Source: Longimicrobiales bacterium (GTDB lineage: Bacteria > Gemmatimonadota > Gemmatimonadetes > Longimicrobiales > Gaopeijiaceae). Taken from it: a stretch of DNA of 46,314 nt. The notes beneath the pieces are model-generated. The model saw only the letters and a program-made list of their open reading frames with translations, was not told the DNA's origin and did no database searches. The translations under genes and the position numbers were made by a program. Positions 1 through 14,257 of the stretch are shown here, piece by piece. The stretch is taken from the NCBI GenBank assembly GCA_048061375.1, contig JBGMRK010000003.1:2524-48837 (forward strand), given 5' to 3'. How positions within the stretch are numbered: the stretch's first letter is position 1; every line of letters begins with the position of its first letter.

Positions 1-94
1 ACTAGATTGCTGTGGGTAGAAAAAAAACATAGTTTCTTCGTGATGCGGTCGATCGGCCGCGTTGCGGTCCTCGGGACGTGCGGGAAGCAGGACG

Positions 95-331
95 ATGTCC
101 GATTCCGTCGACATCAAGATCCTAGAAGTGCTGGAGTCGATTCGACCTGCCCTCCAGGCCGACGGTGGGGACCTCGAGTTCCTGTCGTTCAACCGCCATA
201 ACGGAATCGTCGAGCTCCGCCTCCTGGGCGCTTGCGAATCGTGCCCGATCTCGATGATGACCCTGAAGGAGGGAATCGAACGCCGCCTGAGGGGCAGTGT
301 CCCTGAAGTGACCGCGGTCGACGCGGTGTAG
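95..331 (+). CDS. NifU-like (Nfu-type) Fe-S cluster assembly domain protein
   Basis: ORF 62..331. An internal ATG at 95 is the likely start. Motif LLGACESCPISMMTLKEGIE carries the CxxC typical of the NifU C-terminal domain. Confidence 0.8.
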   Translation: MSDSVDIKILEVLESIRPALQADGGDLEFLSFNRHNGIVELRLLGACESCPISMMTLKEGIERRLRGSVPEVTAVDAV

Positions 332-419
332 GAGCGACCCAGAGCGACCCAGAGGGTTCCAGCGCCGAGAGCGTCCTCTATGGGGCGCCTTTCTTTTAGC
401 CGACGAAAGTGGAGTCTCA

Positions 420-1532
420 ATGAGCAACGATGCCCTGCATCGAGCGGTCCTCGACGCATTGGGGGCCATCATGCACCCTGACGCGGGCAAGGACGTAGTG
501 AGTAGTGGCCTGGTCCGTAACGTGGAAGTCGGAGAAGGCGGATCGGTGAAGTTTTCGTTCGCGCCGGGCCCGCGCGACCCGGGGTCGCTGGCCAAGGAGG
601 CCCGACGGGTTGTCGAGGCGGTGGAGGGGGTCTCGTCGGTCAGAGTGGATGTCCAGCTTCCGCAGACGGCGGCGAGTGGGGAACCGTCGGTTCCACCTTC
701 GCGCGGGCCGGCTCCTGGGTCCGTACCGGCCCCCACGCCCTCGCCGGGTCTGTTGAAGAATGTCGGGGCCATCGTCGCGATCAGTTCGGGCAAGGGTGGT
801 GTCGGTAAGTCCATGGTAGCCGCGAACCTCGCCGCGGCCCTCGCTTCGCGGGGAAAGCGGATCGGCTTGTTGGATGCGGACATTTACGGTCCGAACATCC
901 CCCTGATGTTCGGACAGGACGATCGGCCTCAGGTCACGGGCGATCGCGGCCGGGAGATGATCGAGCCGCTGGAAGCCCACGGAGTGCGCCTCATGAGCTT
1001 GGGATTCCTTCTGGACAAGGAGCAGCCGGCGATCATGCGCGGGCCACTCATCAGCGGAATCCTGCGGCAGTTTCTGGAGCAGGTGGATTGGGGCGAACTC
1101 GACCTCATGGTCGTGGACATGCCGCCCGGGACGGGTGACGCCCAGCTCTCGCTTGTACAGACGATCGACCTTGATGGCGCGGTCATGGTCACGACCCCCC
1201 AGGAGGTGTCCCTCGGGGACGTGCGCCGTGGGATCCGCATGTTCGAACGGGTGAACACGAGGGTGCTTGGTATTGTCGAGAATATGAGCGGACTCGAATG
1301 CCCCCACTGTGGAGAATCGGTGGACGTATTCGGCTCAGGTGGTGGCGAGCGCCTCGCGGAGGAGATGAAACTGCCCTTCCTGGGTCGCGTGCCTCTGGAC
1401 CCGCGGGTCCGGACCGCGGGAGACGAGGGCGTACCGTCCGTACTCGGGGCCAAGGACTCTGACGCCGCCAAGGCGCTCCAAGATGTCGCGAGCGCCGTAG
1501 TTGAGGCGCTCGCCGTCGATGAGCCGGAATGA
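420..1532 (+). CDS. apbC: Mrp/ApbC-type Fe-S cluster carrier ATPase (N-terminal DUF59-like domain, Pro-rich linker, P-loop domain)
   Basis: 370-aa ORF with a deviant Walker A SSGKGGVGKS, DMPPGTGD, and CPHCG near the C-terminus. N-terminal HPDAGKDVVSSGLVRNVEV looks DUF59/MIP18-like. Confidence 0.9.
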   Translation: MSNDALHRAVLDALGAIMHPDAGKDVVSSGLVRNVEVGEGGSVKFSFAPGPRDPGSLAKEARRVVEAVEGVSSVRVDVQLPQTAASGEPSVPPSRGPAPGSVPAPTPSPGLLKNVGAIVAISSGKGGVGKSMVAANLAAALASRGKRIGLLDADIYGPNIPLMFGQDDRPQVTGDRGREMIEPLEAHGVRLMSLGFLLDKEQPAIMRGPLISGILRQFLEQVDWGELDLMVVDMPPGTGDAQLSLVQTIDLDGAVMVTTPQEVSLGDVRRGIRMFERVNTRVLGIVENMSGLECPHCGESVDVFGSGGGERLAEEMKLPFLGRVPLDPRVRTAGDEGVPSVLGAKDSDAAKALQDVASAVVEALAVDEPE

Positions 1533-1774
1533 GGATTGCGCCGCGACCACCCTTATCCCGCAAGGCGTTTGCCGAGATGCCCGTGAATGTCGTGGTGCGT
1601 GACTTTCCAGAGACCCTCCGCGTCCTTGGGAGTGCTCCGGGCTTTTCGCCCAAGTGGGGAGCACTCCGCATTGCGGATCTCGAGGCCGATGTGGACGCAC
1701 TCCTCGACGGCATCGAGTCCGCGACTTCGTGGAGAGGACCGCCGCCGGCCCGAGACCTGCCGCCGCAGGCCTGA
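1529..1774 (+). CDS. small hypothetical protein, possibly DUF1858/ScdA-N-like
   Basis: The ATG at 1529 overlaps the mrp stop (ATGA). Third-position GC looks coding-like. The family assignment is a weak resemblance by eye only. Confidence 0.4.
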   Translation: MRIAPRPPLSRKAFAEMPVNVVVRDFPETLRVLGSAPGFSPKWGALRIADLEADVDALLDGIESATSWRGPPPARDLPPQA

Positions 1775-1812
1775 TACGTGCCGCTGCGGGACTGATACGT
1801 GTCGCCGCAGGT
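1771..1812 (+). repeat. two tandem 21-nt direct repeats (CTGATACGTG-nCGCnGCnGGn), 17/21 identical
   Basis: Unit 1 is 1771..1791 and unit 2 is 1792..1812. Each unit carries TGA-tac-GTG. The unit 1 TGA is the stop of ORF 1529..1774, and the unit 2 GTG (1799) is the GT2 start. Confidence 0.7.
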
Positions 1813-2731
1813 CAGCGTCGTCATGGTGTGCCGAGACGGCCTTCCCTATTTGCTCGAAGCGCTTGGAAGTGTCCTGGCTCAGACCTTCACGGATTGGGAG
1901 TTGGTCTTCTGGGACAACGGCTCGAAGGATGACAGCCGGGAGGCCGCCGCCCGCCTCTCCCCCGACGTCAGGGTCCTCGGAAGCCCGGATCCCATTCCTC
2001 TGGCCGAGGCGAGAAACCGCTTGACCGCCGCCGCGAGGGGCGAATATGTGGCGTTCCTGGATGCGGATGACCTCTGGTATCCCGAGAAGCTCGAGCGGCA
2101 GCTCGAGGCTATGACTGCTCACGGGAGTACGTGGAGCTATACGGATTGTCGCATCGTATCGGCACGCGGAGAGCCGTTGGGCCGGTTCGCCCGGCGCGTC
2201 CCGCAGCGATCCGGGCACGTGACCCGGGCACTACTGCGAGAGAACTTCATTCCGCTCTCCACCGTGGTGATCGATCGCGCGGCCCTCATCGAGGCGGGGG
2301 GCTTCGATGTGACCTTCGGGGTGGCCAACGACTACGATCTCTGGCTGAGGCTCTCCACCCGTACCGCGGTGCTCGGGTGCCCTCGTGTGGCGAGTGCTTA
2401 CCGGGTTCACGGATCCAACCTCACGGGGCGGTACGGGGTCACGTATCGGGAGAATCGCCTAATCTACAGACGCTGGGCGATCGCTGAGGAGCAGCCGGCA
2501 CCCGTGCGCGCAGCGGCTCGTGAAGCCCAAGCGCTACTCAGTTTGAGGTGGGGCCTACGTGAAATCGTCGAGGGCCGAAACCTCAGGCGCGGCTTCAGGC
2601 GTCTGCGAGTGGGTGTCCGAAGGGCAAGGCGTCTACGTACGATTATCCACTTCGCGGTCCGTGCGGTGGCTAGCTCGAGAGTAAGGCTGAAGATGGCCGG
2701 GGAACGCAACCGAGCGCAGCGTAGCAGCTAG
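1799..2731 (+). CDS. family 2 glycosyltransferase
   Basis: 310-aa ORF with a GTG start. N-terminus VSVVMVCRDGLPYLLEALGSVLAQTFTDWELVFWDNGSKDDS and the downstream FLDADD motif are typical of GT-A/GT2. Confidence 0.85.
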   Translation: MSPQVSVVMVCRDGLPYLLEALGSVLAQTFTDWELVFWDNGSKDDSREAAARLSPDVRVLGSPDPIPLAEARNRLTAAARGEYVAFLDADDLWYPEKLERQLEAMTAHGSTWSYTDCRIVSARGEPLGRFARRVPQRSGHVTRALLRENFIPLSTVVIDRAALIEAGGFDVTFGVANDYDLWLRLSTRTAVLGCPRVASAYRVHGSNLTGRYGVTYRENRLIYRRWAIAEEQPAPVRAAAREAQALLSLRWGLREIVEGRNLRRGFRRLRVGVRRARRLRTIIHFAVRAVASSRVRLKMAGERNRAQRSS

Positions 2732-2976
2732 GGCTCCGACCCGGTCTCGCTGTCGAGCCAGCGCCGGTCTGCTGCGGAAAGGGACCCGCCGCGTTTGCGC
2801 TCCATCACCTTGAGCACGACCCAGCCCACGAGAAGTATCGGCGCCACCTTGAAGAGCAGGAAGGCCGCAAGTCCGAGGCCCAGCGACAGCATGGTTCCGA
2901 CCACAGCCAGAGCGACTCCGGCAACCACGAGCGTGACCAACCCAACGGCGAAGAACGTGAGCAACGTACCAATCAT
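2728..2976 (-). CDS. small multi-TM membrane protein (82 aa), last gene of the ECF operon
   Basis: ATG at 2976 is preceded by AGGAG, which overlaps the stop of the upstream gene. The sequence MIGTLLTFFAVGLVTLVVAGVALAVVG... is almost entirely hydrophobic with a charged tail. Its stop overlaps the convergent GT2 stop (CTAG). Confidence 0.6.
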   Translation of the reverse strand: MIGTLLTFFAVGLVTLVVAGVALAVVGTMLSLGLGLAAFLLFKVAPILLVGWVVLKVMERKRGGSLSAADRRWLDSETGSEP

Positions 2977-2986
2977 GTCGTATCTC

Positions 2987-3829
2987 CTAACGGACCCAGA
3001 CGACGTCAATACTTCCGAAGGCTGCATCAATGTCGATCGTGAGGCGCCGATCGGCGTCGTCGTAGTCGAGGGAATAATACGCGTTCCCCCGCTTGACCAG
3101 TCCCTCCGAATCGAACGATGCGAGGAAGGTGTCCTTTACGATCTTGACCCCTAGGCCCACGGGCAACCGGAGTTCCAGAGAGCCGAGGCCCATGTCCACG
3201 GACAATCTCGCGTCACGCTGCCACCTACCGGTGAGGCCCAGACTAATATCACCGACGCCGGCGTCTACCTGAATGGACCTTGCGTTCAGATTACCGAGGC
3301 GACGGGCCGTGAACTCCGCCGCACCCACCTCAAACTGTGCGATATTCATCTCCACAGGGTTCGGCTCTGATACGTCGATGTGCGTCTGCGACGCGCCCGT
3401 CGCAAGGCTCAAGTCGGTGAGCTGGAGTCCGCCCAGGTCGAACTCGGCCTTGACCGCACCGAACTCCATTCGGAGGTCCATAACTACGTTGGTGGACAGT
3501 TCCAAGTCGAATTCGCCGCCCATCTCCCAGCGGCCCAACCGGATGCGGCGCACGAGGTTGTCGGTGCCGAGACGAATCTCGCCGGAGGTGTACTCGGCGA
3601 CCGGTTCGAAGAGCTCTTCGTCGTAACGGAGCCGCATGCGGTAGAGCGCTCCGCCGTCCATCGGGCTTACCGTGAAGTGGCCGGCGCCGTACTGCACGTC
3701 TACCTTCACTTCCTGCTCGTCGCCCAACTGCCTCGACATCGTGACCGTCCGCCAACTCTGTCCGGACAGCCCATTTGCCGAAAGTACCAGGGCAGCCGCG
3801 GCTACCAGCGTGATCCGAGTCCTAGACAT
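2987..3829 (-). CDS. secreted Toastrack-like (DUF2154/DUF4097-like) beta-rich protein
   Basis: The internal ATG at 3829 (MSRTRITLVAAAALVLSANGLSGQ) gives a signal peptide. Repetitive beta-strand units follow (VKAEFDLGG, VGAAEFTARRLG, VGDISLGLTG, GLGSLELRLP), as in the LiaF/LiaG C-terminal domains. There is an 8-nt overlap with the upstream gene. Confidence 0.65.
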   Translation of the reverse strand: MSRTRITLVAAAALVLSANGLSGQSWRTVTMSRQLGDEQEVKVDVQYGAGHFTVSPMDGGALYRMRLRYDEELFEPVAEYTSGEIRLGTDNLVRRIRLGRWEMGGEFDLELSTNVVMDLRMEFGAVKAEFDLGGLQLTDLSLATGASQTHIDVSEPNPVEMNIAQFEVGAAEFTARRLGNLNARSIQVDAGVGDISLGLTGRWQRDARLSVDMGLGSLELRLPVGLGVKIVKDTFLASFDSEGLVKRGNAYYSLDYDDADRRLTIDIDAAFGSIDVVWVR

Positions 3830-5519
3830 CGTTCGCCCCTTCCTCTTCCGCCACGGGCTCCGGCCCGGGCCTGCTGGCATCCCCCTCAACCTCCTGATCG
3901 GCGGCCGTCTCCGGAGCCTCCGAGTCTGGTGCCGCGGCCTGGGCCGCGGGTTCGTCGCGGACCTCCTCGGCCTCAATCACCTCTTCGGCCTCGATGTCGA
4001 CCGTGGGAGTCCAGATGTCGTCGTCGAACGGATCGTGTCCGCCATAGAACTCGGGTTGCCGGCCACCCCTGGTTATGAGTACGGCTCCGAGCCCGATCAA
4101 AAGGGCGGTTATCGTCACGAGGGCCCCTGCTCCCGCTACGAGGGTCTGCAGCACTCCAAGGATCGGCCCGAACATGCCCAGCAAGCTCCCCAAGATCGAT
4201 AGGACCGCGAGGGCCACGATGCCCGCCACCACCGCGTAGAACGTATTGGTGGCCCGCACACGGTCGATGCGACTGAAGTTCTGGTCAGCCAACCACTCGC
4301 CGACATTCCGCGCGACCGCGAGGTATCCGACTCCAACGGCGACCGCGGATACCACCGGGAAGAGCAGGAGCCAGAACGGTAGCGCCAGGATGCCCACGAT
4401 CGAGACCACCAGAGCGATCGACCCGAGGATCCATGCCGGCAGGAAGAGGAAGGCGCCGGCCATCCCGACCATGCCCGCACGAATCGGTGTACGCCGCGCT
4501 GCGTCCGCGATCACGTTCAGCCGATCCTTCCAGAAGAACACGACCAACAGGCTGCCGGCGGCCAGGAGGAACAGCTTGACCAAATCCTCGAAGACCTCTG
4601 CTACTCCTTGCGTGATATCGCCGAAGAATGCCGAAACCCCGGTGTGATCACCACTGGCACGGCCCCCGGTGTTTCTGATCTTGTCGCGGAACTCCGTCTG
4701 AATCTCGGCGCGAAGCCTTCGCTCTACTTGGTCCCGGTCGGACTCCACGGAGACCACCCGGCCCTCGATGGTCCCGCCGTCCCTGTAGAGGCGGGCATCG
4801 ACCAGGCGAAGGTCGCCGGAAATAAGCCCGCCCTCCCCGAGGCGTACCGACCCCTGGGCCACAACGACGTCACCGTCGATCCGGCCTTCAACGGTCAGGT
4901 TACCGTCCACGAGCAAGAGTGGCCCGACGACACGGTCGCCCACGTCCACGACGACGTCCTGCTCCAGATAGATCTGTATCCCCTCCTTCTGCAGGCCGTC
5001 GAGGGCCTCCGCGAGAGCAGAAAGAATGCTCGTCCTCGACAGGAGTTCGAGAAGGTTCAACTCGAAGGAAGGGGAGATTTCATCCACCTCGACGAGACTC
5101 GCATCAACCGTAGGCGGCAGCAGGGCCCCCGCCAGCGCCCCATCCAGCAGCAGCGCGATGTCCGCGGCACTCCCGGTCAATGACGCCAGCGGCTCCCAAG
5201 CGTCGAGCGCACGAGCGAGATCGCCGTCCTCGAGCGTGACTACCTCGCCAAGGAGTTGCCGCCATGCGATATCGAGCTCGTCCCGGCGATCATATGTGCC
5301 CACCAGAGCATCGTCCACGAAGACCTGACCGTCGCGGAACTCGATGTCGAGTCGGCCCTGATCGGCAAACTCGAGATGGATCGACGCCTCCCGTTCCGAG
5401 ATCGCCAGTTGGTTGGAGACCACCTGGCGAACCTGGCCGGACGCGGTAGCCGGCAGCAGCGCGGCGAGCGCTACGGTAAGGAGCGCGGGCGTCAGTCCGC
5501 TAAATCGATGCTTGTGCAT
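3822..5519 (-). CDS. signal-peptide protein with bactofilin-like beta-helix segment, multi-TM C-terminal region and acidic tail
   Basis: The ATG at 5519 (MHKHRFSGLTPALLTVALAALLPATASGQ) gives a signal peptide. VGPLLLVDGNLTVEGRIDGDVVVAQGSVRLGEGGLISGDLRLVDARL resembles polymer-forming cytoskeletal (bactofilin) repeats. About 4-5 hydrophobic helices follow, then an E/D/A/P-rich tail. Confidence 0.65.
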   Translation of the reverse strand: MHKHRFSGLTPALLTVALAALLPATASGQVRQVVSNQLAISEREASIHLEFADQGRLDIEFRDGQVFVDDALVGTYDRRDELDIAWRQLLGEVVTLEDGDLARALDAWEPLASLTGSAADIALLLDGALAGALLPPTVDASLVEVDEISPSFELNLLELLSRTSILSALAEALDGLQKEGIQIYLEQDVVVDVGDRVVGPLLLVDGNLTVEGRIDGDVVVAQGSVRLGEGGLISGDLRLVDARLYRDGGTIEGRVVSVESDRDQVERRLRAEIQTEFRDKIRNTGGRASGDHTGVSAFFGDITQGVAEVFEDLVKLFLLAAGSLLVVFFWKDRLNVIADAARRTPIRAGMVGMAGAFLFLPAWILGSIALVVSIVGILALPFWLLLFPVVSAVAVGVGYLAVARNVGEWLADQNFSRIDRVRATNTFYAVVAGIVALAVLSILGSLLGMFGPILGVLQTLVAGAGALVTITALLIGLGAVLITRGGRQPEFYGGHDPFDDDIWTPTVDIEAEEVIEAEEVRDEPAAQAAAPDSEAPETAADQEVEGDASRPGPEPVAEEEGANDV

Positions 5520-6477
5520 AGGGCTGTTCCGTGCGTCGTGTTTGAAAGAGGTTTGCGTAGAGAATCCATCCCGCCGAACCGGAGAGAGCCGCAAACGCAA
5601 CGGCGCCCGTCAAGGCGATCAGGGGACTCCCCGACAAGAAATCGACAAAAGCGTAGGCCTGGAACGCGACTGCAGACTCGACAGCACCTTCCATCAGCGC
5701 AGATCCGAGCGCCGTACCCAATTCCGTCACCTTCCATGAGAGGAAGGACGCCAGATACCTTGGCGTCAGCACCGGATTGGAGAACACCTCGAAAAGGAGC
5801 ACCGAGCCGATCGTGATGGGTGGCATGGCGAGACCGGCGACGGCCGCCCAGGCCCGACGGGTCCGTGGCACCAGGCGCTTCACTCGGGCGAACGCACCGA
5901 TCCTGGCCGCGGCGGGCTCCCACGCTTCCACGAGCTGGAGCACCCGGTGCTGCGCCATGACGCGCTCGTAGAAGCCCTCCGCGGGCTCCAGGGAATGAAG
6001 CGTTCCGAGGCCCTCGAAGAGCCCCTGCCAGGCGGCCACATCGGAGCGGCACGCCGCACAGCCAGAGATATGTGCCTCGATCCGGGCCACCTGTCGAGCT
6101 GGTACGAGCCCTTCGATGTAGTCCTGGACCCGCTCGGGTGAGAGGTGCTCCTTGGCAGCTCTGCCTCCCACAGAGATCCAAGCGCCGACCTTTTGCCGCC
6201 ATGAAGCAGCGCCGTCTTGAGCGGGCATGTGTTCTAGCACACGCGCAGCGAAGTCATGGGACGGCCCGATCTCCGCCAGGCCGCCGAGCTCCGCATAAAG
6301 AAGTTGCCAGGCTTCGAGATCGGCCTGACAACGGGAGCAGAACACAACGTGCTCCTGGGCGTCAGCGAACTCTCCATCGGAGAGTTGCCCGTCCAGAAGC
6401 GCTTGGATCTGCTGGGCTGTCAGGTGCCTGTTCATTTCACCAGGAAAACCATTCGAAAAGTCATCGTTGTTCCACAT
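5500..6477 (-). CDS. membrane anti-sigma factor with two tandem zf-HC2 (HxxxCxxC) domains
   Basis: HVVFCSRC and HISGCAAC each sit in a repeated unit of about 65 aa. Hydrophobic segments lie at the C-terminus. The gene is immediately downstream of the ECF sigma. The start is ambiguous (6477 or ATG 6435). Confidence 0.8.
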   Translation of the reverse strand: MWNNDDFSNGFPGEMNRHLTAQQIQALLDGQLSDGEFADAQEHVVFCSRCQADLEAWQLLYAELGGLAEIGPSHDFAARVLEHMPAQDGAASWRQKVGAWISVGGRAAKEHLSPERVQDYIEGLVPARQVARIEAHISGCAACRSDVAAWQGLFEGLGTLHSLEPAEGFYERVMAQHRVLQLVEAWEPAAARIGAFARVKRLVPRTRRAWAAVAGLAMPPITIGSVLLFEVFSNPVLTPRYLASFLSWKVTELGTALGSALMEGAVESAVAFQAYAFVDFLSGSPLIALTGAVAFAALSGSAGWILYANLFQTRRTEQPYAQASI

Positions 6478-6532
6478 GCGGCCCTACGGGCCTCCGGAGC
6501 GGAAAGTTTCACCATTATCGTTTGATGCCAGG

Positions 6533-7180
6533 TCATTGTGCGAGGTGGGCCAGATGCTCCTTCAGCTCACTCCTGGCGCGGTGTAGGTACGTCTTCACCG
6601 TACCGAGGGGGAGTTCCATGATTTCTGCGATTTCATCGTACGCATATCCCTCCACATGGCGGAGCAGGATGGCGGTTCGATACTCGGGCCGGAGTTTCCC
6701 GATCGCATGCTCGATTTGGCTCCCCAATTCCTTGTGTTCCACATATTCCTGCGGGCTCTCCTCCCCAGACTCGACCACCAGGCGCGTCTCCTCCTCCTCG
6801 CGGGCCGTGCGGGCATGGGGTGACCCGTGGATCGACACGGTATCGAGCTTGCGCTTTCTAAGGTGATCTATGGTGTGGTTGTTCGAGATCTTGAAGATCC
6901 AACTGCTGAACTTGTACCGAGGATTGTACGAACCGATGGCCCCGAACGCTCGGATGAAGGCCTCCTGCGCAAGATCCTCGGCCAACGATCGATCACGAAC
7001 CATGCGGAATACGAGCGAAAAGATCGGACGTTGGTACCGTCTGAGAAGCTCTCCGAATGCCGCCTGTCTGCCCTCGGCGGCGAGGGAAGCGAGCTCTTTG
7101 TCAGACAGTTCAGCGTAATCCAACGCGACCGAGCTCCCGTGTGAAGATGGTGGCTGGGGAGAGGGTAGCCAGCTCCTCAC
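6533..7180 (-). CDS. ECF-type RNA polymerase sigma-70 family factor
   Basis: Region 2 (RRYQRPIFSLVFRMVRDRSLAEDLAQEAFIRAF, FSSWIFKISNNHTIDHLR) and region 4 (YRTAILLRHVEGYAYDEIAEIMELPLGTVKTYLHRAR) are both present. The true start may be the GTG near 7129. Confidence 0.9.
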   Translation of the reverse strand: MRSWLPSPQPPSSHGSSVALDYAELSDKELASLAAEGRQAAFGELLRRYQRPIFSLVFRMVRDRSLAEDLAQEAFIRAFGAIGSYNPRYKFSSWIFKISNNHTIDHLRKRKLDTVSIHGSPHARTAREEEETRLVVESGEESPQEYVEHKELGSQIEHAIGKLRPEYRTAILLRHVEGYAYDEIAEIMELPLGTVKTYLHRARSELKEHLAHLAQ

Positions 7181-7236
7181 CCCGGCCGGTACCTTGTGGG
7201 GGAAACGACGGTAAAGTTAACCAAGTCACGGATTTC

Positions 7237-7968
7237 ATGGCGACTCTACCCGAAGCGAAACCTTCGAGCGGAGGTGGACGGGCACAGCAGGTGCGACAGA
7301 TTTTCTCGGAGATCGCGCCACGATACGATCTGCTCAACCACGTGCTCAGCTTGAATATCGATCGCCGCTGGCGTGGAAAAGCCGTGGGCGAGTTGGGATG
7401 GGAAACGCAGCCAGAAGGGAGGTATCTGGACGCATGTGCAGGTACGTTCGACCTGAGCCTTGAACTGGCGCGCCGGCCCGGTTTTGGCGGCCATGTGATG
7501 GCGGCCGACTTTGCCCAGCCGATGCTGGTTCAGGGTCGCGCCAAGTTGGACGGAACTCCCGTGTCGGCGGTGTGCGGAGATACCCTTCAGCTGCCGTTTC
7601 CGGACGCGGTTTTCGATGGAGCTTCGGTAGGGTTCGGCGTCCGGAATCTCGCCGATCTCGAACGGGGCCTTGCTGACATGAAGCGGGTTCTGCGTCCAGG
7701 GGCTCACCTGGTTATTCTCGAATTTACTGTACCGACAAATATAATAATGAAAGCATGTTACATGCTTTACTTCACGCAAATTCTACCTATGGTCGGGCGC
7801 CTCGTGTCGGGACACCCTTGGGCGTACACCTATCTGCCGGAGTCCGTGAAGGAGTTCCCGAGCCCTGACGGTCTGGCGGCCTTGATGCGAGGTGCGGGGT
7901 TCGTCGAGGTGCGCTGGAGGACGCTGAGCGGGGGAATCGCCGCGCTGCACGTCGGCGTGGCGCCGTGA
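7237..7968 (+). CDS. ubiE: demethylmenaquinone/ubiquinone C-methyltransferase
   Basis: Internal ATG at 7237. The protein is UbiE/MenG-like throughout: VRQIFSEIAPRYDLLNHVLSLNIDRRWR, LDACAGT, and the C-terminal YTYLPESVKEFPSPDGL. Confidence 0.9.
   Translation: MATLPEAKPSSGGGRAQQVRQIFSEIAPRYDLLNHVLSLNIDRRWRGKAVGELGWETQPEGRYLDACAGTFDLSLELARRPGFGGHVMAADFAQPMLVQGRAKLDGTPVSAVCGDTLQLPFPDAVFDGASVGFGVRNLADLERGLADMKRVLRPGAHLVILEFTVPTNIIMKACYMLYFTQILPMVGRLVSGHPWAYTYLPESVKEFPSPDGLAALMRGAGFVEVRWRTLSGGIAALHVGVAP
7722..7790 (+). other. AT-rich, rare-codon island inside ubiE
   Basis: Visibly AT-rich against the GC-rich background. It contains a perfect TATAAT at 7740..7745, and its codons include AUA AUA, AAU, AAA, UGU, CUU, CAA, AUU and CUA. 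Confidence 0.6.
7750..7768. repeat. 19-bp perfect palindrome AAAGCATGT-T-ACATGCTTT
   Basis: Read directly from the sequence. The 9-bp arms are exact reverse complements around a single central T. Confidence 0.9.
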
Positions 7969-7977
7969 ACGGTGCGG

Positions 7978-9465
7978 TCAGCCATGGGGTGGAGCCGAAC
8001 GCTCCGCCACCTCGATGACGGTGACCGGACCGAGCTTTTCGAGCCCCGGGTCGAGCCTGTTAGGATCGCCCAAAATGAGGATCACCATCCGAGACGGATC
8101 CACGTTGTCCGTGAACGTACGCCACACGCTCCCCGGGTTCACGGCCTGGATACCGCGCAGGTACCGCGCGAGCCAGTCGAGCGGAAGTCCCTGGCTGGCG
8201 TAGAGCATCTGCCTGGAAACGACCTGGCTGGGATCTTGGAAGTTGAACACGAAGCCATTCGCGATCCGGTCTATCGCGTCCCGGACCTCGATATCGCTCG
8301 GGGCTTTCAGCCTCATTCCCTCCATCACTTCGAGGATCGCACGGATCGCCGCCACGGTACTCTCGGGCTTGGTCTGGGCCATCGCGCCGACGATGCCACG
8401 TGACACTACGGGTGTGGTCCACACGGACGTCGCACTGTACGAGTACCCTTCCTCGGTCCTGACCCTCTGGACGAGCCGGCTGCTGAATCCGCTCGCTCCG
8501 AAAATCGAGTGGCCGATCCGCGAACTGAAATACTCAGGTGAGTCTTCCAGGTGGACGTCACTCGGGTGTCCGACGATGATCGTGCTCTGGTCGAGCTCCT
8601 TGGCGATCAAATAGACGCCGGGCGGTGTGGTGAAGTCGGCCTCGGGCGGGTCGGGCAATTCGCCTGGGCATGACGGCCACCCATCGAGCATCTGATCGAG
8701 CAACGGCTTCACGGCGTCCCAGGAGACATCTCCGGTCACGCCCAGAGTAAGGTTCTCCGGGCAGAAGATCCTGCGATGCACCTCACGCAAGACGGCGGGG
8801 GACATCGCCTCTGGCGTCAGGTCCTCCGGTTCCATCTGCCAGCCAACCGGGTGGTCACCGTACATGAGGTGGTTGAACTGAGAAATCGCGAGCCTTCCGG
8901 GTGTATCAGCCGCTCTGCGCACGTCCTCGAGCTCCTGGCCGCGCCAAACCTCCACCCTAGCCGAGTCGAATCCCGGATTGCGAACCATGTCGGTCCAGAT
9001 CGCGATCGCCTCGGGAAGGTACCGGGCAAGGGTGTTGAGACTCGTGAAGGCGCTCTGGCCCCCACCGCCGAAGGCGGTCTGGACGGCGTAGAACTCCAGC
9101 GCGTGATCCACGGAATCAGGGGAGAGAGACGTGGTTCCGGCGCTACGGATCAGCGATGGCAGGGCCGTGGCCGCGCCAAGGCGGGTGCGTGGGAAATTGG
9201 AGGGGCCACCCTTGAAACGTGCGAACACAGAGACGAGTGGGAGTGTCCGGCTCTCGATGTAGAGGACCTTGACGCCGCGGTCGAGCTCGTAGAGTTCCGG
9301 CTGCGTCGGAGTGAACTCGAGCTTCTCGAAATCGAGGTCGCGCACCGCGCCGAGGCCCACCGCCTGTGCCAGTACTCCTCGGGGCACGAACGGTGCGGCG
9401 ATCAAGATTACGGCCATCAGCCGGCGCCCGAACGACGCGGCATGGTCCCGGCTCGCTCCCCTCAT
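7978..9465 (-). CDS. M16 family peptidase, non-catalytic-type subunit (no HxxEH)
   Basis: 495-aa ORF with an N-terminal signal-like segment and M16/insulinase-like length. No HxxEH motif was found. There is a 4-nt overlap with the upstream M16 gene. Confidence 0.8.
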   Translation of the reverse strand: MRGASRDHAASFGRRLMAVILIAAPFVPRGVLAQAVGLGAVRDLDFEKLEFTPTQPELYELDRGVKVLYIESRTLPLVSVFARFKGGPSNFPRTRLGAATALPSLIRSAGTTSLSPDSVDHALEFYAVQTAFGGGGQSAFTSLNTLARYLPEAIAIWTDMVRNPGFDSARVEVWRGQELEDVRRAADTPGRLAISQFNHLMYGDHPVGWQMEPEDLTPEAMSPAVLREVHRRIFCPENLTLGVTGDVSWDAVKPLLDQMLDGWPSCPGELPDPPEADFTTPPGVYLIAKELDQSTIIVGHPSDVHLEDSPEYFSSRIGHSIFGASGFSSRLVQRVRTEEGYSYSATSVWTTPVVSRGIVGAMAQTKPESTVAAIRAILEVMEGMRLKAPSDIEVRDAIDRIANGFVFNFQDPSQVVSRQMLYASQGLPLDWLARYLRGIQAVNPGSVWRTFTDNVDPSRMVILILGDPNRLDPGLEKLGPVTVIEVAERSAPPHG

Positions 9466-10970
9466 CTGCCTGCCGCCTTGGTCACGAGTGTAGTGACCGT
9501 GCGGTTCCTCCGCGTGAAATAGGTGCGCACCACTCGGGACACGTCAGTCGGGTTCACGGCCTGGAGTCGCCTCGAGAACCGGAAGCTCGCGCGCCAATCC
9601 CCGTATAGGGACGCAGAACCCGCCAGCTGCAATGCGAGTCCGAGGTTGGAAGTCAGGCGTCGGAAATCGCCCGCCTCCACCTGGTTGCGAACCCGCTGAA
9701 GGTCGAGGTCCTCGGGCGGATGGGCGGCGAGGCGATCGAGTTCCTCATAGACCACGGCCTCGACGTCGAGCGTGCTGTGTGGAGCCCGGGGAACGGCGCT
9801 TATCGAAAACAACTGGGCGAATCGTGAGCCCGGGCCCATCGAGGACGTGACCGACGTGGCCAACCGCTCGCGCACGACGAGGCGTTGATAGAGCCGCGAC
9901 GTCCGACCTCCGGTAAGGAGCGACGTGAGCATGACCAGCGCGGGCATGTCGTCGTGTAGGTGGTCCACCACATGCCATCCCATAAGGACGAGCGGCTCGG
10001 CGTCGAATTCGATCTCCGTCCGCCGCTCTCCGCGCTGCTCGGGCTCCCGAGCGAGCACCGGCCTCGGGGCTTCTCCGGCCGGGATCGCGCCGAAGTATTC
10101 TTCCGCCCAGTCGATGACCTGATCCGGGTCCACGTCGCCGACGATGGATACCACCGCGTTGTTCGGCCCGTAATAGCGGCGGTAATAATCGACCACTTGG
10201 CGGCGGGTGAGGCTCTGCACGTCAGACATGTAACCCACCACCGGAACGCCGTAGGGGTGCATTTGGAAGGCGGAGGCCAAATGCGCCTGGGAGGTCATCG
10301 CGAATGGCTGCGTGTCGACGCGCATGCGGCGTTCCTCCAGCACGACGTCCCGCTCGCTGTAGAATTCGCGGAAGACGGGGTTCCTCATGCGGTCCGACTC
10401 CATGACGAACCACAACTCGACCCGGTTGGACGGAAGCTCCACGAAGTAGGTGGTGGATTCGGAATCGGTTGTAGCGTTCAGGCTGCGCGCCCCGGACGTC
10501 GAGAGTATCAGGTCGAACTCATTGGCCACCACGTAGGTGCGAGCTGAGTCTTCGAGTGTCCGGATTCGCCCGTTCAGTTCGCCGATTCGGACCGTGTTGC
10601 GCTCGCCGATGCCTGAGCGGAGCATAAGGATCGTGTCCTGAATCGCATCCATTTCGGCGAAGAGTGCCTGCTCGGCCGGGTAGTTGCGCGTGCCGACGGT
10701 GGTGGTGCCTTTGAAGAGCAGGTGCTCGAGTAGGTGTGCGATGCCGGTCGAGCCCAGAACCTCGTTGACGCCCCCCACCGCGTACTGGACCGCGAACGAC
10801 ACGGTCGGCGCCGCCGTCTGGGGCAGGATGAGGAGACGCATACCGTTGTCGAGCGTGTACTCCACGACGGGCAGGCTCTCCCCCGGCGTCGCTTGTGCAC
10901 TTACTCCCGTCGGCGCTCCGTACGGGCCGGCGAGCAGCACCAACGTCGCGAGCCACCCCGTCAGCGGCAT
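9462..10970 (-). CDS. M16 family zinc peptidase, catalytic-type subunit
   Basis: The internal ATG at 10970 (MPLTGWLATLVLLAGP...) gives a signal peptide. The inverted zinc motif GIAHLLEHLLFKGT (HxxEH) is present. Confidence 0.85.
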   Translation of the reverse strand: MPLTGWLATLVLLAGPYGAPTGVSAQATPGESLPVVEYTLDNGMRLLILPQTAAPTVSFAVQYAVGGVNEVLGSTGIAHLLEHLLFKGTTTVGTRNYPAEQALFAEMDAIQDTILMLRSGIGERNTVRIGELNGRIRTLEDSARTYVVANEFDLILSTSGARSLNATTDSESTTYFVELPSNRVELWFVMESDRMRNPVFREFYSERDVVLEERRMRVDTQPFAMTSQAHLASAFQMHPYGVPVVGYMSDVQSLTRRQVVDYYRRYYGPNNAVVSIVGDVDPDQVIDWAEEYFGAIPAGEAPRPVLAREPEQRGERRTEIEFDAEPLVLMGWHVVDHLHDDMPALVMLTSLLTGGRTSRLYQRLVVRERLATSVTSSMGPGSRFAQLFSISAVPRAPHSTLDVEAVVYEELDRLAAHPPEDLDLQRVRNQVEAGDFRRLTSNLGLALQLAGSASLYGDWRASFRFSRRLQAVNPTDVSRVVRTYFTRRNRTVTTLVTKAAGR

Positions 10971-10981
10971 GCGTGGGCCGC

Positions 10982-11812
10982 TCAAGTCTGGCTTTTCTCC
11001 CACGGCTGGCACCTTGGGCACAAGAAGGCGGATCGGTTTCCGAACACGATCCGCTCGATCCCGGTCCCACAGCGGATGCATGGTTGGCTGACACGACCGT
11101 ATACGCCGAGTCTGCGCGCATTATTTCCACGCTCGCCGGAGGCATCCCGGTAGTTCCTCAAGGTGGTACCTCCGTGTTGGATGGCGCTGAGCAACACGGA
11201 CCGGATGGCGCGGAGCAGCGCATCGCCTTCCTTCCGGGTCAGGGTGTTGGCTGGACGAGCAGGGTGGACGCGAGCTCTCCAAAGGGCCTCGTTCGCGTAG
11301 ATATTGCCTACCCCCGCGACACGGCGCTGGTCCAACAACCACGAGCGGATTGGTGAACGTGAGGCCCGCAGTCGTGCGAACATGTCGCGGCCGGTGAAGC
11401 GAGCATCCAGGGGCTCCGGTCCCATGCTGGCCGACCGCGACACCCACTCGCCTCGTGTGAGAATCTCCACAGCGCCGAAGCGCCTCACGTCGTCGTAGAC
11501 CACCACGCGACCATCGTCCAGCGTGAAGCGCACAGCGGGATGGGTCGATGGCGAGGCCGACGGCAGCGTGAGAAGCCGCCCGGTCATGCCCAGGTTGATC
11601 ACCAGGAACCCCGGCGGATCCAATTCCATTACGATGTTCTTGCCACGCCGGCCGACATGCTGGACGCGGCGGCCGGCAACCTGCTTGCGGAAGCGGGCGG
11701 GGGAGGTGCGGAGGATGTCGGGGCGGAGAACCCGGGCTCTTGCGATGACCGCGCCATCGAGCGCGGGGCGCAGACCGCGGACGATCGTCTCGGCTTCAGG
11801 GAGTTCAGGCAC
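10982..11812 (-). CDS. mutM: formamidopyrimidine-DNA glycosylase
   Basis: A GTG at 11812 gives the N-terminus (M)PELPEAETIV required for the catalytic N-terminal Pro. The C-terminal zinc finger is CIRCGTGIERIVFGNRSAFLCPRCQ. The longer 318-aa ORF is an artefactual extension. Confidence 0.9.
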   Translation of the reverse strand: MPELPEAETIVRGLRPALDGAVIARARVLRPDILRTSPARFRKQVAGRRVQHVGRRGKNIVMELDPPGFLVINLGMTGRLLTLPSASPSTHPAVRFTLDDGRVVVYDDVRRFGAVEILTRGEWVSRSASMGPEPLDARFTGRDMFARLRASRSPIRSWLLDQRRVAGVGNIYANEALWRARVHPARPANTLTRKEGDALLRAIRSVLLSAIQHGGTTLRNYRDASGERGNNARRLGVYGRVSQPCIRCGTGIERIVFGNRSAFLCPRCQPWEKSQT

Positions 11813-13118
11813 CCGCTGCGTGCTCGGCGTCGGGCGCCGGAGAGGATCGGGCCAGTTCTCTCCATCCGATGTCGGCGCGGGAGCGCTTGCCGTCGAACTG
11901 GATGCGGGCCGCAGCAGCCCTACTGCGCTCGCCGGCACTCGCCATCGAGCTGCCCAGCCCCGTGACGGCCAGGACGCGTCCCCCGGATGTGACCAACCCC
12001 TCCTCGGTGCGGCGCGTACCCGCGTGAAAGACCAGCACGTCGGGATCGTCCCGTACGTCGTCCGGGATCGTGATAGGGAGGCCTTTGGGATAACTGTCCG
12101 GATAGCCTTTCGATGCCATCACAGTCGTGAGCGCGCAGGCATCATTCCAACGCAGTGGGCGGTCCGCGAGACTGCCGCCTTCTGCCACCTCCGCCAGCAG
12201 GTCCAGGAGGGAGCTATCGAGCAACGGCAGTACGACCTGCGTTTCCGGGTCGCCGAAACGGCAGTTGAACTCGACGACGCTGGGGCCCTCCTTCGTGAGC
12301 ATGAGGCCGGCGTACAGGAGACCCCGAAATTCGGATCCGTCCTCTGCTAGGGCGGCCAGCGTGGGTCGCAGAATGGCCGAGGTCACCTCCTCGATCAGCT
12401 CCGGAGTGGCGAGCCCTACGGGCGCGTAGGCTCCCATGCCGCCCGTGTTTGGACCCGTGTCGCCCTCGCCGATCCTCTTGTGGTCTTGAGCGGGAACGAG
12501 CACCAGAGCTTCACGCCCGTCGGTCAGAGCGAATACGGAGAGCTCCTCGCCGGTCATGAATTCCTCCACGACGATCTCGCGGCCGGCCTCGCCGAAGGCG
12601 CGGTCCTCCATCATCATGCGCGCACCGTCTAGCGCGTCCTCGACGGTTTCGCACACCAGCGCTCCCTTGCCGGCGGCCAGGCCCGAGGCTTTTACCACCA
12701 CCGGCGCGCCCTGCTCTCGGATGTACTCCTGCGCGGAGGCGAGTTCCTCGAACACAGCGTAGGCCGCCGTTCGCACGCCGGCCTGGGTCATGAGGTCCTT
12801 CGCGTAGACCTTGCTGGACTCGATGCGTGCGGCCGCCTGCGTCGGACCAAAGGCCGGGACGCCCTTCGATCTGAGGCGATCGACGATTCCGGCGGCGAGC
12901 GGGCCTTCGGGACCGACGACGGCCAAGTCGATCTTCCGTGCGGCCGCCCACCCGGTGAGTGCCTCGAGGTCGCCCGGGGCGATCTCCACACCCTTGCACA
13001 ACGGTGCCATGCCGCCGTTGGGCTGCGTGGCAAAGAACTCGGCGTCCGGCCGGTCCTTCGCAAGCTTCCAAAGCAGGGTGTGCTCTCTCCCGCCGTTTCC
13101 GATGATGAGGATTCGCAT
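11805..13118 (-). CDS. purD: phosphoribosylamine--glycine ligase
   Basis: 437 aa, with MRILIIGNGGREHTLLWKL and PurD-like sequence throughout. Its stop overlaps the mutM GTG start by 8 nt. Confidence 0.95.
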   Translation of the reverse strand: MRILIIGNGGREHTLLWKLAKDRPDAEFFATQPNGGMAPLCKGVEIAPGDLEALTGWAAARKIDLAVVGPEGPLAAGIVDRLRSKGVPAFGPTQAAARIESSKVYAKDLMTQAGVRTAAYAVFEELASAQEYIREQGAPVVVKASGLAAGKGALVCETVEDALDGARMMMEDRAFGEAGREIVVEEFMTGEELSVFALTDGREALVLVPAQDHKRIGEGDTGPNTGGMGAYAPVGLATPELIEEVTSAILRPTLAALAEDGSEFRGLLYAGLMLTKEGPSVVEFNCRFGDPETQVVLPLLDSSLLDLLAEVAEGGSLADRPLRWNDACALTTVMASKGYPDSYPKGLPITIPDDVRDDPDVLVFHAGTRRTEEGLVTSGGRVLAVTGLGSSMASAGERSRAAAARIQFDGKRSRADIGWRELARSSPAPDAEHAAGA

Positions 13119-13160
13119 CCGGCCACTGTACGGAACGGCGGACGGGCTGTCAAAGCGGGG

Positions 13161-13200
13161 GGAAAAGCAGCGAGGCGACCGGGTTTCCGGTCGCCTCGCT
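13161..13200 (-). terminator. rho-independent terminator candidate downstream of the M48 gene
   Basis: A perfect 14-bp stem pairs AGCGAGGCGACCGG (13169..13182) with CCGGTCGCCTCGCT (13187..13200). On the minus strand the stem is followed by GCTTTTCC. Confidence 0.6.
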
Positions 13201-13237
13201 GGCTCGCCTCGGGCCCGACGTGGGCCGAAACGGTGGG

Positions 13238-14257
13238 CTACTTCTTCGAGCCCAGGACCTCGTCTGCCATACGCTTCGCGGCGCCGGCCATGTGCCCGAA
13301 GAGATCCTTCGCACCCTGCGCGTAGGCCGCCGTAGCCTCGCGCAAATCGTTTCGGTAGGCCGGATCAGGGTCGGTGCGGCGCTGATACTCTCCGCGGATG
13401 ATGCGGTCGTACTCGCCCTGCTCGATCCACGACCGGATTTCGGCGACCCGAAGCACATGGAACGGATGGGTTGTGCCCATGAGGTTGAGCACCTTGAAGA
13501 CCTGGTCGGCCACGTCTCCAGAGTCCCGGTACTCCTCGGCCTGGATGATGAACTCGTCCAGATCGAGCTCCTCGTCGCCGCCGCCGGAGAGCTTGAGAAT
13601 CGCCCTCATCATGCTGTCCGGGTTCTGGATCGTGAGCAGGCCGGCCCGGTCGCTCGAGAGTTCGCTCTTTCTCGACCACTCCAACAGCGCGACCAGAATC
13701 GCCCTCGCAGCGAGGCCGACGATCGGGAAGCCCATGTTGGCGAGCTTGAGCAGCAGTTCCGTCATCGTCTTGTAGAGAACGTGATCGCTCATGATGTGCC
13801 CGAGCTCGTGTCCCATGATGTAGGACACCTGTTCGTCGTCGAGCAGGCTGACCAGGCCCGAATGCAGGATGATGAACGGCTGATCCATGCCGTACGCTCC
13901 AGCGTTCACGACCGGATTCTGGGAGATGAACAGCGGGTACTCCTCCGGGGCATCCAGCGTCTCGAGCACGTCCATATACAGATCGTGGAGTCGGGGGACC
14001 TGCCGGGGGGACACTCGCACGGCGCTCGCGAGGAACGCGAGCCGGATCGGCTTTTCGCCGAAGAACCCGAAGAGCCTCTTCAACACCTCGTCGAAGACGG
14101 GGATCTTCCGGAGCGCCTGCAGCGCAGCACGGTCCGCGGGGTGTTCCCAGGACCGGGGGGCAATATCGGTGAGGATCCGGCGGGCGCGGGTCGGCTCTTC
14201 TTCGCCGCTCCCGTTCCCATTCTCGCCGCCGTCTACTCCCTCGTTCTCACCTGCCAT
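13238..14257 (-). CDS. M48 family metallopeptidase
   Basis: Contains the HELGHIMSDH (HExxH) motif in a 339-aa ORF. A strong AAGGAG SD lies upstream of the ATG at 14257. Confidence 0.85.
   Translation of the reverse strand: MAGENEGVDGGENGNGSGEEEPTRARRILTDIAPRSWEHPADRAALQALRKIPVFDEVLKRLFGFFGEKPIRLAFLASAVRVSPRQVPRLHDLYMDVLETLDAPEEYPLFISQNPVVNAGAYGMDQPFIILHSGLVSLLDDEQVSYIMGHELGHIMSDHVLYKTMTELLLKLANMGFPIVGLAARAILVALLEWSRKSELSSDRAGLLTIQNPDSMMRAILKLSGGGDEELDLDEFIIQAEEYRDSGDVADQVFKVLNLMGTTHPFHVLRVAEIRSWIEQGEYDRIIRGEYQRRTDPDPAYRNDLREATAAYAQGAKDLFGHMAGAAKRMADEVLGSKK

Follow-up and report, generated by a model that had tools for sequence, protein, structure and literature searches.

A conserved operon of Gemmatimonadota joins a SigW-like ECF sigma factor and a tandem-ZAS anti-sigma to a DUF8173-type membrane protein, a candidate sensor subunit

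We examined a 46,314-nucleotide (nt) stretch of DNA, called the window throughout, from a Longimicrobiales bacterium of the phylum Gemmatimonadota (GenBank assembly GCA_048061375.1, contig JBGMRK010000003.1, positions 2,524 to 48,837). A first-pass annotation made from the letters of the window had pointed to five minus-strand genes as a candidate envelope-stress module. These genes form a genuine operon, whose products are an extracytoplasmic function (ECF) sigma factor, an anti-sigma factor with two zinc-binding anti-sigma (ZAS) domains, a DUF8173-type membrane protein (gene 3), a Toastrack-like protein (gene 4), and a small hydrophobic protein (gene 5). On balance, we judge this to be a conserved SigW-like ECF signaling operon of Gemmatimonadota, in which the gene 3 protein probably acts as a co-anti-sigma factor or sensor and an M48 metallopeptidase encoded elsewhere in the window probably belongs to the output. 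Read along the minus strand, the five genes are ordered as follows (aa, amino acids).

6533 to 7123, minus strand: sigma gene, 196 aa from TTG 7123; the open frame reaches GTG 7180; stop codon TGA at 6535-6533
5500 to 6477, minus strand: anti-sigma gene, 325 aa from ATG 6477; stop codon TAG at 5502-5500
3822 to 5519, minus strand: gene 3, 565 aa from ATG 5519; stop codon TAG at 3824-3822
2987 to 3829, minus strand: gene 4, 280 aa from ATG 3829; stop codon TAG at 2989-2987
2728 to 2976, minus strand: gene 5, 82 aa from ATG 2976

The first-pass annotation had described these genes as one tightly coupled unit, and the gap, overlaps, and coordinates on which it based that description are all borne out by reading the strand, as is, in essence, the domain content that it gave for the five products. 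The interval between the sigma stop codon and ATG 6477, put earlier at about 55 nt, is exactly 55 nt. The anti-sigma frame runs past ATG 5519 of gene 3, so that the two frames share 20 nt, and the gene 3 frame, which ends at 3822, passes ATG 3829 of gene 4 for an overlap of 8 nt. The TAG codon of gene 4 falls within the AGGAG sequence at 2988-2984 that is the Shine–Dalgarno element of gene 5. On both sides the operon is bounded by genes on the opposite strand, a divergent UbiE-type methyltransferase gene upstream and a convergent family-2 glycosyltransferase gene downstream. Nothing in Rfam matched the operon region, and simple scans for sigma-70 promoters and terminators gave hits no more numerous than in shuffled sequence.

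The same arrangement is found throughout the phylum. A scan of one genome per GTDB species with an 8-sequence alignment returned 26 Gemmatimonadota loci, whose six-frame open reading frames were searched with the five window proteins. Of these, 25 span the region and one breaks off at gene 3; every one of the 25 carries the five genes in unchanged order on a single strand, and the 20-nt overlap of the anti-sigma and gene 3 frames is kept in at least 15 of them. A further match of 72 residues, in a Flavobacteriales bin, was dropped, none of the five genes being present there. When three close relatives are set aside, the phylum-wide medians for identity with the window proteins are 77% for sigma, 44% for the anti-sigma, 46% for gene 3, 60% for gene 4, and 75% for gene 5, which puts the smallest protein on par with sigma.

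This co-conservation agrees with what the first-pass annotation had led one to expect of relatives, but it is not specific to the five genes. The whole neighborhood (window positions 1-15734 compared with L001-L026) is syntenic, with genes for a cystathionine gamma-synthase-like protein, an M48 peptidase, PurD, Fpg, two M16 peptidases, and UbiE preceding the operon and genes for Mrp and NifU following it. This synteny is unusually strong for housekeeping genes, and the gene 3 proteins within it are only 36-50% identical. Indeed, because M48, PurD, Fpg, the two M16 genes, UbiE, Mrp, and NifU are equally conserved in order, the five genes could be read as mere neighbors in a highly syntenic core-genome region that make up no functional unit. 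We find this scarcely credible, since the genes share a strand with opposite-strand boundaries, their 20- and 8-nt overlaps are conserved, some lineages have the anti-sigma and gene 3 fused, a conserved putative promoter lies ahead of the last four genes, and a three-gene core recurs in another phylum within a different neighborhood. Thus, the five genes constitute one unit.

The first gene encodes an ECF sigma factor, as had been claimed. Its product matches Pfam Sigma70_r2 (66 bits) and Sigma70_r4_2 (67 bits), regions sigma-2 and sigma-4 are the only ones present, and the 196-aa protein scores 113 bits against a cut-off of 42.9 with the sigma70-ECF model TIGR02937, all of which is consistent with an ECF (group 4) sigma factor. 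The top NCBIfam models are both for SigW, and both scores lie under the equivalog cut-off (PRK09641, 160.3 bits versus 209; TIGR02948, 142.9 versus 243). By this equivalog test the protein is SigW-like and not a SigW orthologue. Its closest relative among solved structures is likewise Bacillus subtilis SigW (5WUQ, E 5.6e-31), followed by AlgU, SigE, and RpoE. The true start is most likely TTG 7123, because this codon, the N-terminus that follows it ('LDY/LDF..SDKEL'), and an upstream GGAG are kept in relatives; the stretch back to GTG 7180 is not conserved. The main text of the ECF classification of Casas-Pastor et al. 2021 makes no mention of bactofilin, DUF4097, or Gemmatimonadetes.

A candidate promoter for this sigma factor came to light when upstream regions were aligned. 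The conserved core reads GAAAC-N17-CGTA, with the fuller consensus TGAAACTTT…CGTAGGGTC, and two copies of its exact form in the window, together with the peptidase gene that follows the second, are located as follows.

6485 to 6511, minus strand: TGAAAC-N17-CGTA in the gap between sigma and anti-sigma genes, with the −35 element at 6511-6506 and the −10 element at 6488-6485
14317 to 14343, minus strand: second TGAAAC-N17-CGTA, 59 nt upstream of the M48 gene
13238 to 14257, minus strand: M48 zinc-metallopeptidase gene (Pfam Peptidase_M48, 89 bits; HELGH motif), a candidate regulon member

The exact pattern is expected by chance 0.31 times per window. The copy in the gap recurs at that position in each of the 25 loci whose sequence includes the gap, and it also occurs in the divergent locus L030. 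The motif also matches the consensus recognized by sigma-W, TGAAAC-N16-CGTA, in keeping with SigW as the nearest relative of the window sigma factor. A scan of the 46-kb window with a position weight matrix built from these sites found only one other strong site, at 14348-14309, with a score of 16.6, where the maxima of 20 shuffled sequences did not exceed 12.3; this is the site ahead of the M48 gene, 7 kb away. The M48 orthologue in L008 is also preceded by the motif. Among metagenome loci with at least 150 nt of sequence upstream of an M48 orthologue, 73 of 78 carry the exact motif within 250 nt upstream; the background across 225 kb of these loci is a single hit. A one-mismatch sequence at 24343-24369 on the plus strand (TGAAAC-N17-CGGA) lies inside a CcmF-like coding sequence and was judged a chance occurrence. 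The pattern of sites outlines a small conserved regulon that would comprise the anti-sigma gene, genes 3 to 5, and the M48 peptidase gene.

The exact motif is also found upstream of the sigma gene itself in nine loci (L005, L008, L009, L011, L012, L016, L017, L022, and L030), although the window has no such copy upstream of sigma, even with one mismatch allowed. Within the gap of the window, CGTA ends 7 nt before ATG 6477, and an identical spacing of CGTA, 7 nt, and ATG is seen ahead of the sigma gene in the divergent L030. Other clades have an AGGAG sequence and a GTG start about 25 nt past the −10 element. Because CGTA lies so close to ATG 6477, the window anti-sigma message may either be leaderless or be translated from ATG 6435 (M15), where conservation begins; relatives align with the anti-sigma from aa 14-16 on. 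About 110-150 nt upstream of the sigma start, loci L005-L012 and L018-L026 share a conserved block, 'GCCGCGTACCCGGGAAAC-N7-GTTTCCC', which holds a perfect 7-bp inverted repeat (GGGAAAC/GTTTCCC) and overlaps the sigma-proximal −35 element in some clades. It may function as an operator or form an RNA hairpin. The clade of the window carries a different conserved sequence (GGTTAACTTTACCGTCGTTTCC) at that position.

The anti-sigma protein matches zf-HC2 in two stretches (41 bits versus a cut-off of 22.2, E 2e-10, Pfam), and two complete ZAS domains can be read from its sequence, just as the first-pass annotation had proposed.

6328 to 6426, minus strand: ZAS domain 1, zinc ligands H18, H43, C47, and C50 (H-x24-H-x3-C-x2-C), read from the sequence
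6052 to 6150, minus strand: ZAS domain 2, zinc ligands H110, H135, C139, and C142 (H-x24-H-x3-C-x2-C); the best zf-HC2 stretch is aa 115-144

By its zf-HC2 scores and ligand motif, the protein belongs at the sequence level to the ZAS subtype of class I anti-sigma domains (ASDs). Of 25 related loci, 22 preserve the tandem, the others having three motifs (L013), one motif (L022), or a truncated protein (L026), and at least two copies of HxxxCxxC are found in 23 of the 25. Two divergent loci, L030 and L031, encode a single-ZAS anti-sigma, a gene 3 protein with the N-domain described below and without its beta-helix, a Toastrack protein, and a gene 5 protein of 71 aa. Because a divergent single-ASD relative is collinear with ASD2 and the membrane part of the window protein, ASD1 looks like an added N-terminal duplicate. 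ZAS domain 2 aligns with the single ASD of the anti-sigmas from L030 and from an Anaerolineae locus (L028).

Downstream of the ZAS domains, hydropathy analysis picks out two hydrophobic stretches (about aa 210-232 and 280-298), which are flanked N- and C-terminally by Arg-rich sequence. From hydropathy and flanking charges, the anti-sigma is predicted to form a hairpin of two transmembrane (TM) helices with both termini inside and about 50 residues outside. It has no sequence relative among solved structures. In one Longimicrobiales locus (L026, 7394-8528), the anti-sigma frame is only 111 aa and gene 3 is reduced to its C-terminal membrane part, with sigma, the promoter motif, gene 4, and gene 5 intact; either the regulatory pair is decaying here or the assembly is in error.

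The two ZAS domains raise the possibility of an RsrA-like thiol or redox switch that responds to cytoplasmic oxidative or disulfide stress, with the membrane proteins acting only as anchors. In keeping with such a switch, the full H-x24-H-x3-C-x2-C ligand set is present in both domains and the tandem is kept widely among the loci. However, many membrane ZAS anti-sigmas (RsiW, RslA, ChrR) hold zinc in a structural role and are not redox sensors. Moreover, the conserved regulon comprises envelope proteins and the M48 peptidase with no thioredoxin or thiol-repair genes, and the anti-sigma appears to be membrane embedded and is coupled to a set of predicted periplasmic proteins. We therefore regard a redox switch as very unlikely.

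For gene 3, hydropathy and an AlphaFold model built with 60 homologues (pLDDT, the predicted local distance difference test score, 77) agree on a layout of signal peptide, N-domain, bactofilin-like beta-helix, charged helix, five TM helices, and disordered acidic tail, in accord with the signal peptide, four to five TM helices, and acidic tail noted at first pass. The signal peptide region reads MHKHR, a hydrophobic stretch, and then ATA|SGQ. Three domains follow.

5115 to 5432, minus strand: N-domain, aa 30-135, beta-sheet and helices (AlphaFold pLDDT >90), spanning aa 33-133 in the model
4746 to 4976, minus strand: bactofilin-like beta-helix, aa 182-258, about 75 aa (AlphaFold pLDDT >93)
4059 to 4634, minus strand: TM domain, aa 296-487, five helices spanning aa 296-482 in the model, the part common to DUF8173 proteins

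The N-domain has no Pfam match and no significant fold match in the PDB, and in homologue alignments its residues W86, R87, and W108 are invariant or nearly so. Orthologues without the beta-helix retain this domain; the Anaerolineae relatives discussed below do not have it. In the TM domain, P361, W383, F387, P388, and G407 are invariant, and R347, W409, R484, and R487 are invariant or nearly so. Precomputed hits to DUF8173 (PF26514) exist for many gene 3 orthologues and for nearly all of the Anaerolineae relatives, and aa 189-488 of gene 3 are collinear with a DUF8173 protein of Anaerolineales (P0383; BLASTP E 6e-8 over 303 aa). Because the positively charged loops all fall on one side, the N-domain and beta-helix are predicted to be periplasmic and the tail cytoplasmic. 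This tail (aa 488-565; 3825-4058, minus strand) is disordered, contains 26 Asp or Glu among 79 residues, and is likewise predicted to be cytoplasmic. We found 113 gene 3 homologues, and those named by source all come from Gemmatimonadota.

The bactofilin-like helix is where the first-pass annotation had placed it, and Pfam Bactofilin (PF04519) matches there (aa 203-257), but with a score of 19.8 bits that remains under the cut-off of 27.9. Among the relatives scanned, two exceed the cut-off (P0034, 29.2; P0112, 29.4); further homologues have precomputed PF04519 hits, and some are named 'polymer-forming cytoskeletal protein' by their sources. The two best PDB sequence matches of the gene 3 family profile are the bactofilins 6RIA and 2N3D, at an E value of only 0.2. 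The beta-helix is missing from seven orthologous loci (L018, L019, L021, L023, L024, L025, and L030), and all of these except L030 keep everything else. These weak profile hits and annotations are what would speak for gene 3 as a true bactofilin polymer that shapes the cell or organizes the envelope, with sigma in control of a morphogenetic program. We consider such a role extremely unlikely and rejected gene 3 as a bona fide bactofilin: its score is below the Pfam cut-off, the helix spans about 75 aa against a 98-position Pfam model, and it follows a signal peptide and is predicted to lie outside the cytoplasm in which bactofilins polymerize, a location that argues against a cytoskeletal role. 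It is also deleted in the seven loci with the rest of the operon kept. The earlier description of a polymer-forming repeat protein is not supported.

What is constant about gene 3 is its company. Two remote hits, P0112 and P0113, share its membrane domain ('…GLGAVLLTR.G…') and also have a signal peptide, a bactofilin-like helix, and an acidic or proline-rich tail. A search with P0113 returned 411 relatives, of which the named ones are from Anaerolineae, Anaerolineales, or Chloroflexi and nearly all have DUF8173. In a profile search of 1.84 billion cluster representatives, 1505 proteins were found at E<=1e-10, so the membrane-domain family is large. In all five Anaerolineae (Chloroflexota) contexts sampled, an ECF sigma gene and a gene for a protein of about 135-180 aa stand immediately ahead of the DUF8173 gene, with overlapping frames, and no Toastrack or small-protein gene was seen in these five contexts. 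In the one Anaerolineae locus scanned (L028), the intermediate protein matches zf-HC2 at E 3e-4, just under the Pfam cut-off, with HxxxCxxC present.

Compared with the window operon, the Anaerolineae cassette has the same three-gene order and overlapping frames, and its third protein, as read in P0112, P0113, and P0383, shares the signal peptide, bactofilin-like beta-helix, and homologous TM domain of gene 3, with an acidic or proline-rich tail. The cassette differs in its single ZAS domain, in a DUF8173 protein without the N-domain, and in a sigma factor only 31% identical to that of the window. Four of the five contexts have a related motif, TGCAAC-N16-CGTA, ahead of sigma, whereas the window motif is in the gap; sigma and anti-sigma overlap without a gap in four of the five. 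On the evidence of these gene contexts, sigma, ZAS anti-sigma, and DUF8173 protein are the conserved core, and the second ZAS domain, N-domain, Toastrack protein, and small protein appear as Gemmatimonadota additions.

A second line of evidence comes from gene fusion. A single frame of 859-882 aa encodes both the anti-sigma and the gene 3 protein in L012 and in protein clusters P0032 and P0035. In the fused form, the gene 3 signal sequence would become a third TM helix, which is consistent with the predicted topology. DUF8173 adjoins the sigma/ZAS pair in a second phylum without Toastrack, and some Gemmatimonadota encode gene 3 and the anti-sigma as one fused protein; these patterns make a signaling partner of the anti-sigma a likelier role for gene 3 than that of an effector.

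Gene 4 encodes the Toastrack-like protein. Two Pfam models score just under threshold (LiaF-like_C, 28.0 bits versus 29; Toast_rack_N, 17.1 versus 22), and structure prediction upholds the earlier assignment. The AlphaFold model (pLDDT 86.8) has as its top Foldseek match 4QRK (E 3.6e-15, TM-score 0.64 by target length), followed by 3LYC, 3PET, and 4OPW (4OPW at E 8e-4). The definition of Toastrack by Ravi et al. 2024 is based on structures 4QRK and 4OPW (PMC11237479). At the level of the model, the Toastrack fold of gene 4 is confirmed. Many gene 4 orthologues have precomputed PF09922 or PF17115 hits, one is named 'toast rack family protein', and the orthologue in L030 exceeds the Toast_rack_N cut-off with 29.6 bits. 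The N-terminus consists of MSRTR and a hydrophobic stretch, with no other membrane segment, and the protein looks as if it is secreted by means of a Sec-type signal, again as first proposed. Because gene 4 is fully conserved in the seven loci where the gene 3 beta-helix is missing, it appears independent of that helix, and docking of gene 4 on the helix was set aside as unlikely.

The gene 5 protein is hydrophobic over aa 1-59 by hydropathy and ends in a basic and conserved 'SLSAADRRWLEGE' tail; it is predicted to have two TM helices with the 'SLSAADRRWLEGE' tail in the cytoplasm. The first-pass annotation had likened it to LiaI-type anchors. This likeness found no support, given that Pfam and NCBIfam hold no match at E<=1 except two chance-level DUF hits, and no PspA/LiaH gene lies in the neighborhood of roughly 15 kb.

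It had also been proposed that the products of genes 3, 4, and 5 are all effector-like. This description fares poorly for gene 3, whose DUF8173 domain accompanies sigma and anti-sigma in two phyla and which can be fused to the anti-sigma. The idea can nonetheless be put more broadly, with genes 3 to 5 as Lia/Psp-like envelope-protective effectors that are controlled by an ECF sigma factor and repair or stabilize the membrane, taking no part in signaling. The three genes lie downstream of a sigma-type promoter motif, and gene 4 has the Toastrack fold that is also found in LiaF, LiaG, and YvlB. B. subtilis sigma-W drives a Toastrack operon, yvlABCD, as an effector set, and the absence of genes 4 and 5 from the Anaerolineae cassette marks them as add-ons. 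Set against this are the fusion of gene 3 to the anti-sigma in some lineages, the constancy of DUF8173 as third partner of sigma and anti-sigma in two phyla, and an anti-sigma that has no sensing domain of its own. In addition, PspA/LiaH, PspC, and the LiaI-LiaF-TM domain are missing from the operon and its neighbors, and translational coupling to the anti-sigma suggests a complex of fixed proportions. We conclude that a purely effector role for genes 3 to 5 is possible but rather unlikely.

Our preferred reading, in which the DUF8173 protein is a co-anti-sigma factor or sensor subunit, suggests the following scheme. In the resting state, the 196-aa sigma factor would be held at the membrane by the cytoplasmic ZAS domains of the anti-sigma, as family knowledge leads one to expect. 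Signal input would be delegated to the DUF8173 protein with its periplasmic N-domain, short beta-helix, and five TM helices, which probably touches the hairpin of the anti-sigma inside the membrane. With so little of the anti-sigma exposed outside the cell, periplasmic input is likely to come from the DUF8173 protein. The Toastrack and 82-aa proteins would be subunits added in Gemmatimonadota and kept in fixed proportion by translational coupling, and they may modulate the sensor or serve as first-line envelope effectors. On perturbation of the envelope, sigma would be released and would transcribe from TGAAAC-N17-CGTA promoters. From the gap promoter, the anti-sigma and genes 3 to 5 would be resynthesized, giving negative feedback and replenishment; the second promoter would supply the M48 metallopeptidase, and a third, upstream of sigma itself, would operate in some clades.

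Several observations weigh against this scheme. The pTM (predicted template modeling score) of the gene 3 model is 0.43, so the arrangement of its domains is uncertain, and the whole model has no significant Foldseek match in the PDB (the best is SV2A, E 8e-3). The beta-helix cannot be essential to the mechanism, because it is dispensable in seven loci. The sensor role is deduced from fusion, translational coupling, and gene context, and gene 3 could equally be the main regulated effector. That TGAAAC-N17-CGTA acts as a promoter read by this sigma factor is something we infer from its position and its likeness to sigma-W promoters. The periplasmic locations are predictions from hydropathy, charge distribution, and AXA-like cleavage motifs, and envelope stress as the stimulus is argued only from where the products are located and from the M48 target. 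Finally, co-conservation alone is no proof of a functional link, because the whole 15-kb neighborhood is syntenic.

A wider proposal, which we put forward tentatively and hold to be somewhat doubtful, is that DUF8173 is the signal-input subunit of an ECF family that spans two phyla and in which the ZAS anti-sigma has no sensing domain of its own. The elaborations made in Gemmatimonadota would then be four, namely another anti-sigma domain, a new N-domain in the periplasm, a Toastrack protein that is likewise periplasmic, and the highly constrained 82-aa membrane protein, and would yield a multi-subunit envelope sensor with a negative-feedback promoter. If true, this would be the first function for DUF8173 and would place a Toastrack protein at work in signaling outside the cytoplasm.

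Gemmatimonadota are abundant in soils and sediments, and to our knowledge almost none of their regulation has been studied experimentally. The operon is a probable core, phylum-wide ECF stress switch of this group, which now comes with a promoter motif and a minimal conserved regulon (anti-sigma, genes 3 to 5, and the M48 peptidase). DUF8173 gains a functional lead as the constant third partner of an ECF sigma/ZAS pair in two phyla. The architecture adds variants to the ECF repertoire in the form of a two-ZAS anti-sigma, a Toastrack protein predicted to reside in the periplasm, and a small membrane protein whose conservation equals that of sigma. Current models are not overturned by these findings, whose value is incremental, not conceptual.

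Beyond the operon, the family-2 glycosyltransferase gene (1799-2731, plus strand) converges on gene 5, and the ends of the two genes overlap by 4 nt. It was found only in the three closest relatives, L001-L003, and for that reason looks recently inserted; in other loci Mrp follows gene 5 more or less directly. Just past the divergent UbiE gene lie the two M16-family peptidase genes in tandem (7978-11081, minus strand), with overlapping stop and start codons (ATGA, 9462-9465). No sigma-type motif was seen ahead of them in the window.

Among known systems, bactofilins (BacA 2N3D, the Thermus protein 6RIA, and CcmA) resemble gene 3 in having a short right-handed beta-helix with a G-D-V-x-V-x-G pattern. 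The window helix is unlike theirs in being shorter, predicted to be extracytoplasmic, contained within a membrane protein, and dispensable, with the match reaching only E 0.2 and a score under the Pfam cut-off. The LiaFSR/LiaIH(G) and Psp systems share with the window operon a Toastrack-fold protein and a small hydrophobic membrane protein encoded with a stress regulator. A Lia or Psp system is nevertheless ruled out, since the operon and its neighbors lack a two-component system, PspA/LiaH, PspC, and the LiaI-LiaF-TM domain; neither a histidine kinase or response regulator gene nor a pspA gene was seen in the operon or its flanks. Unlike LiaF, the window Toastrack protein is predicted to be free and secreted, with no TM domain beyond its signal sequence, and gene 5 has no detectable likeness to LiaI.

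The Escherichia coli rpoE-rseABC operon is similar in that additional envelope regulators, periplasmic RseB and membrane-bound RseC, are encoded after the anti-sigma, and RpoE and AlgU are the next-best structural relatives of the window sigma factor. The rpoE operon has an internal sigma-E-dependent promoter ahead of rseA, and the M48 protease BepA belongs to the sigma-E regulon. However, RseB and RseC are unrelated to genes 3 to 5 in sequence or fold, RseA is not a ZAS protein, and the window M48 protein carries no signal peptide.

The nearest counterpart is the sigma-W/RsiW system of B. subtilis, which includes the closest solved relative of the window sigma factor, a promoter of the type TGAAAC-spacer-CGTA, and a membrane ZAS anti-sigma. 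The core regulon of sigma-W includes yvlABCD and pspA (PMC3498285), and yvlB encodes a Toastrack protein (Ravi et al. 2024, PMC11237479). The sigma-W regulon (yvlABCD, pspA-ydjGHI, sppA) contains proteases as well as a Toastrack operon (PMC3498285, PMC11237479). There are several differences. The window sigma factor scores below the SigW equivalog cut-offs; the window anti-sigma has two ZAS domains and a two-helix hairpin, whereas RsiW has one TM helix and an extracellular domain; the window Toastrack gene is inside the sigma operon, with a DUF8173 partner and a product predicted to be secreted; and the conserved window promoter motif lies between sigma and anti-sigma, in contrast to a promoter only upstream of sigma. 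Ravi et al. argue that Toastrack domains are intracellular (PMC11237479).

The first-pass annotation did not recognize the combination of parts as a described system. In support, our literature search found no paper describing the five-gene unit, DUF8173, bactofilin-like anti-sigma partners, or ECF regulation in Gemmatimonas. On the other hand, ECF control of Toastrack has a precedent in sigma-W and yvlABCD (PMC3498285), and Toastrack operons linked to sigma factors have already been mentioned by Ravi et al. 2024 (PMC11237479). The operon is a putative variant of a well-known bacterial stress switch, not a new kind of system.

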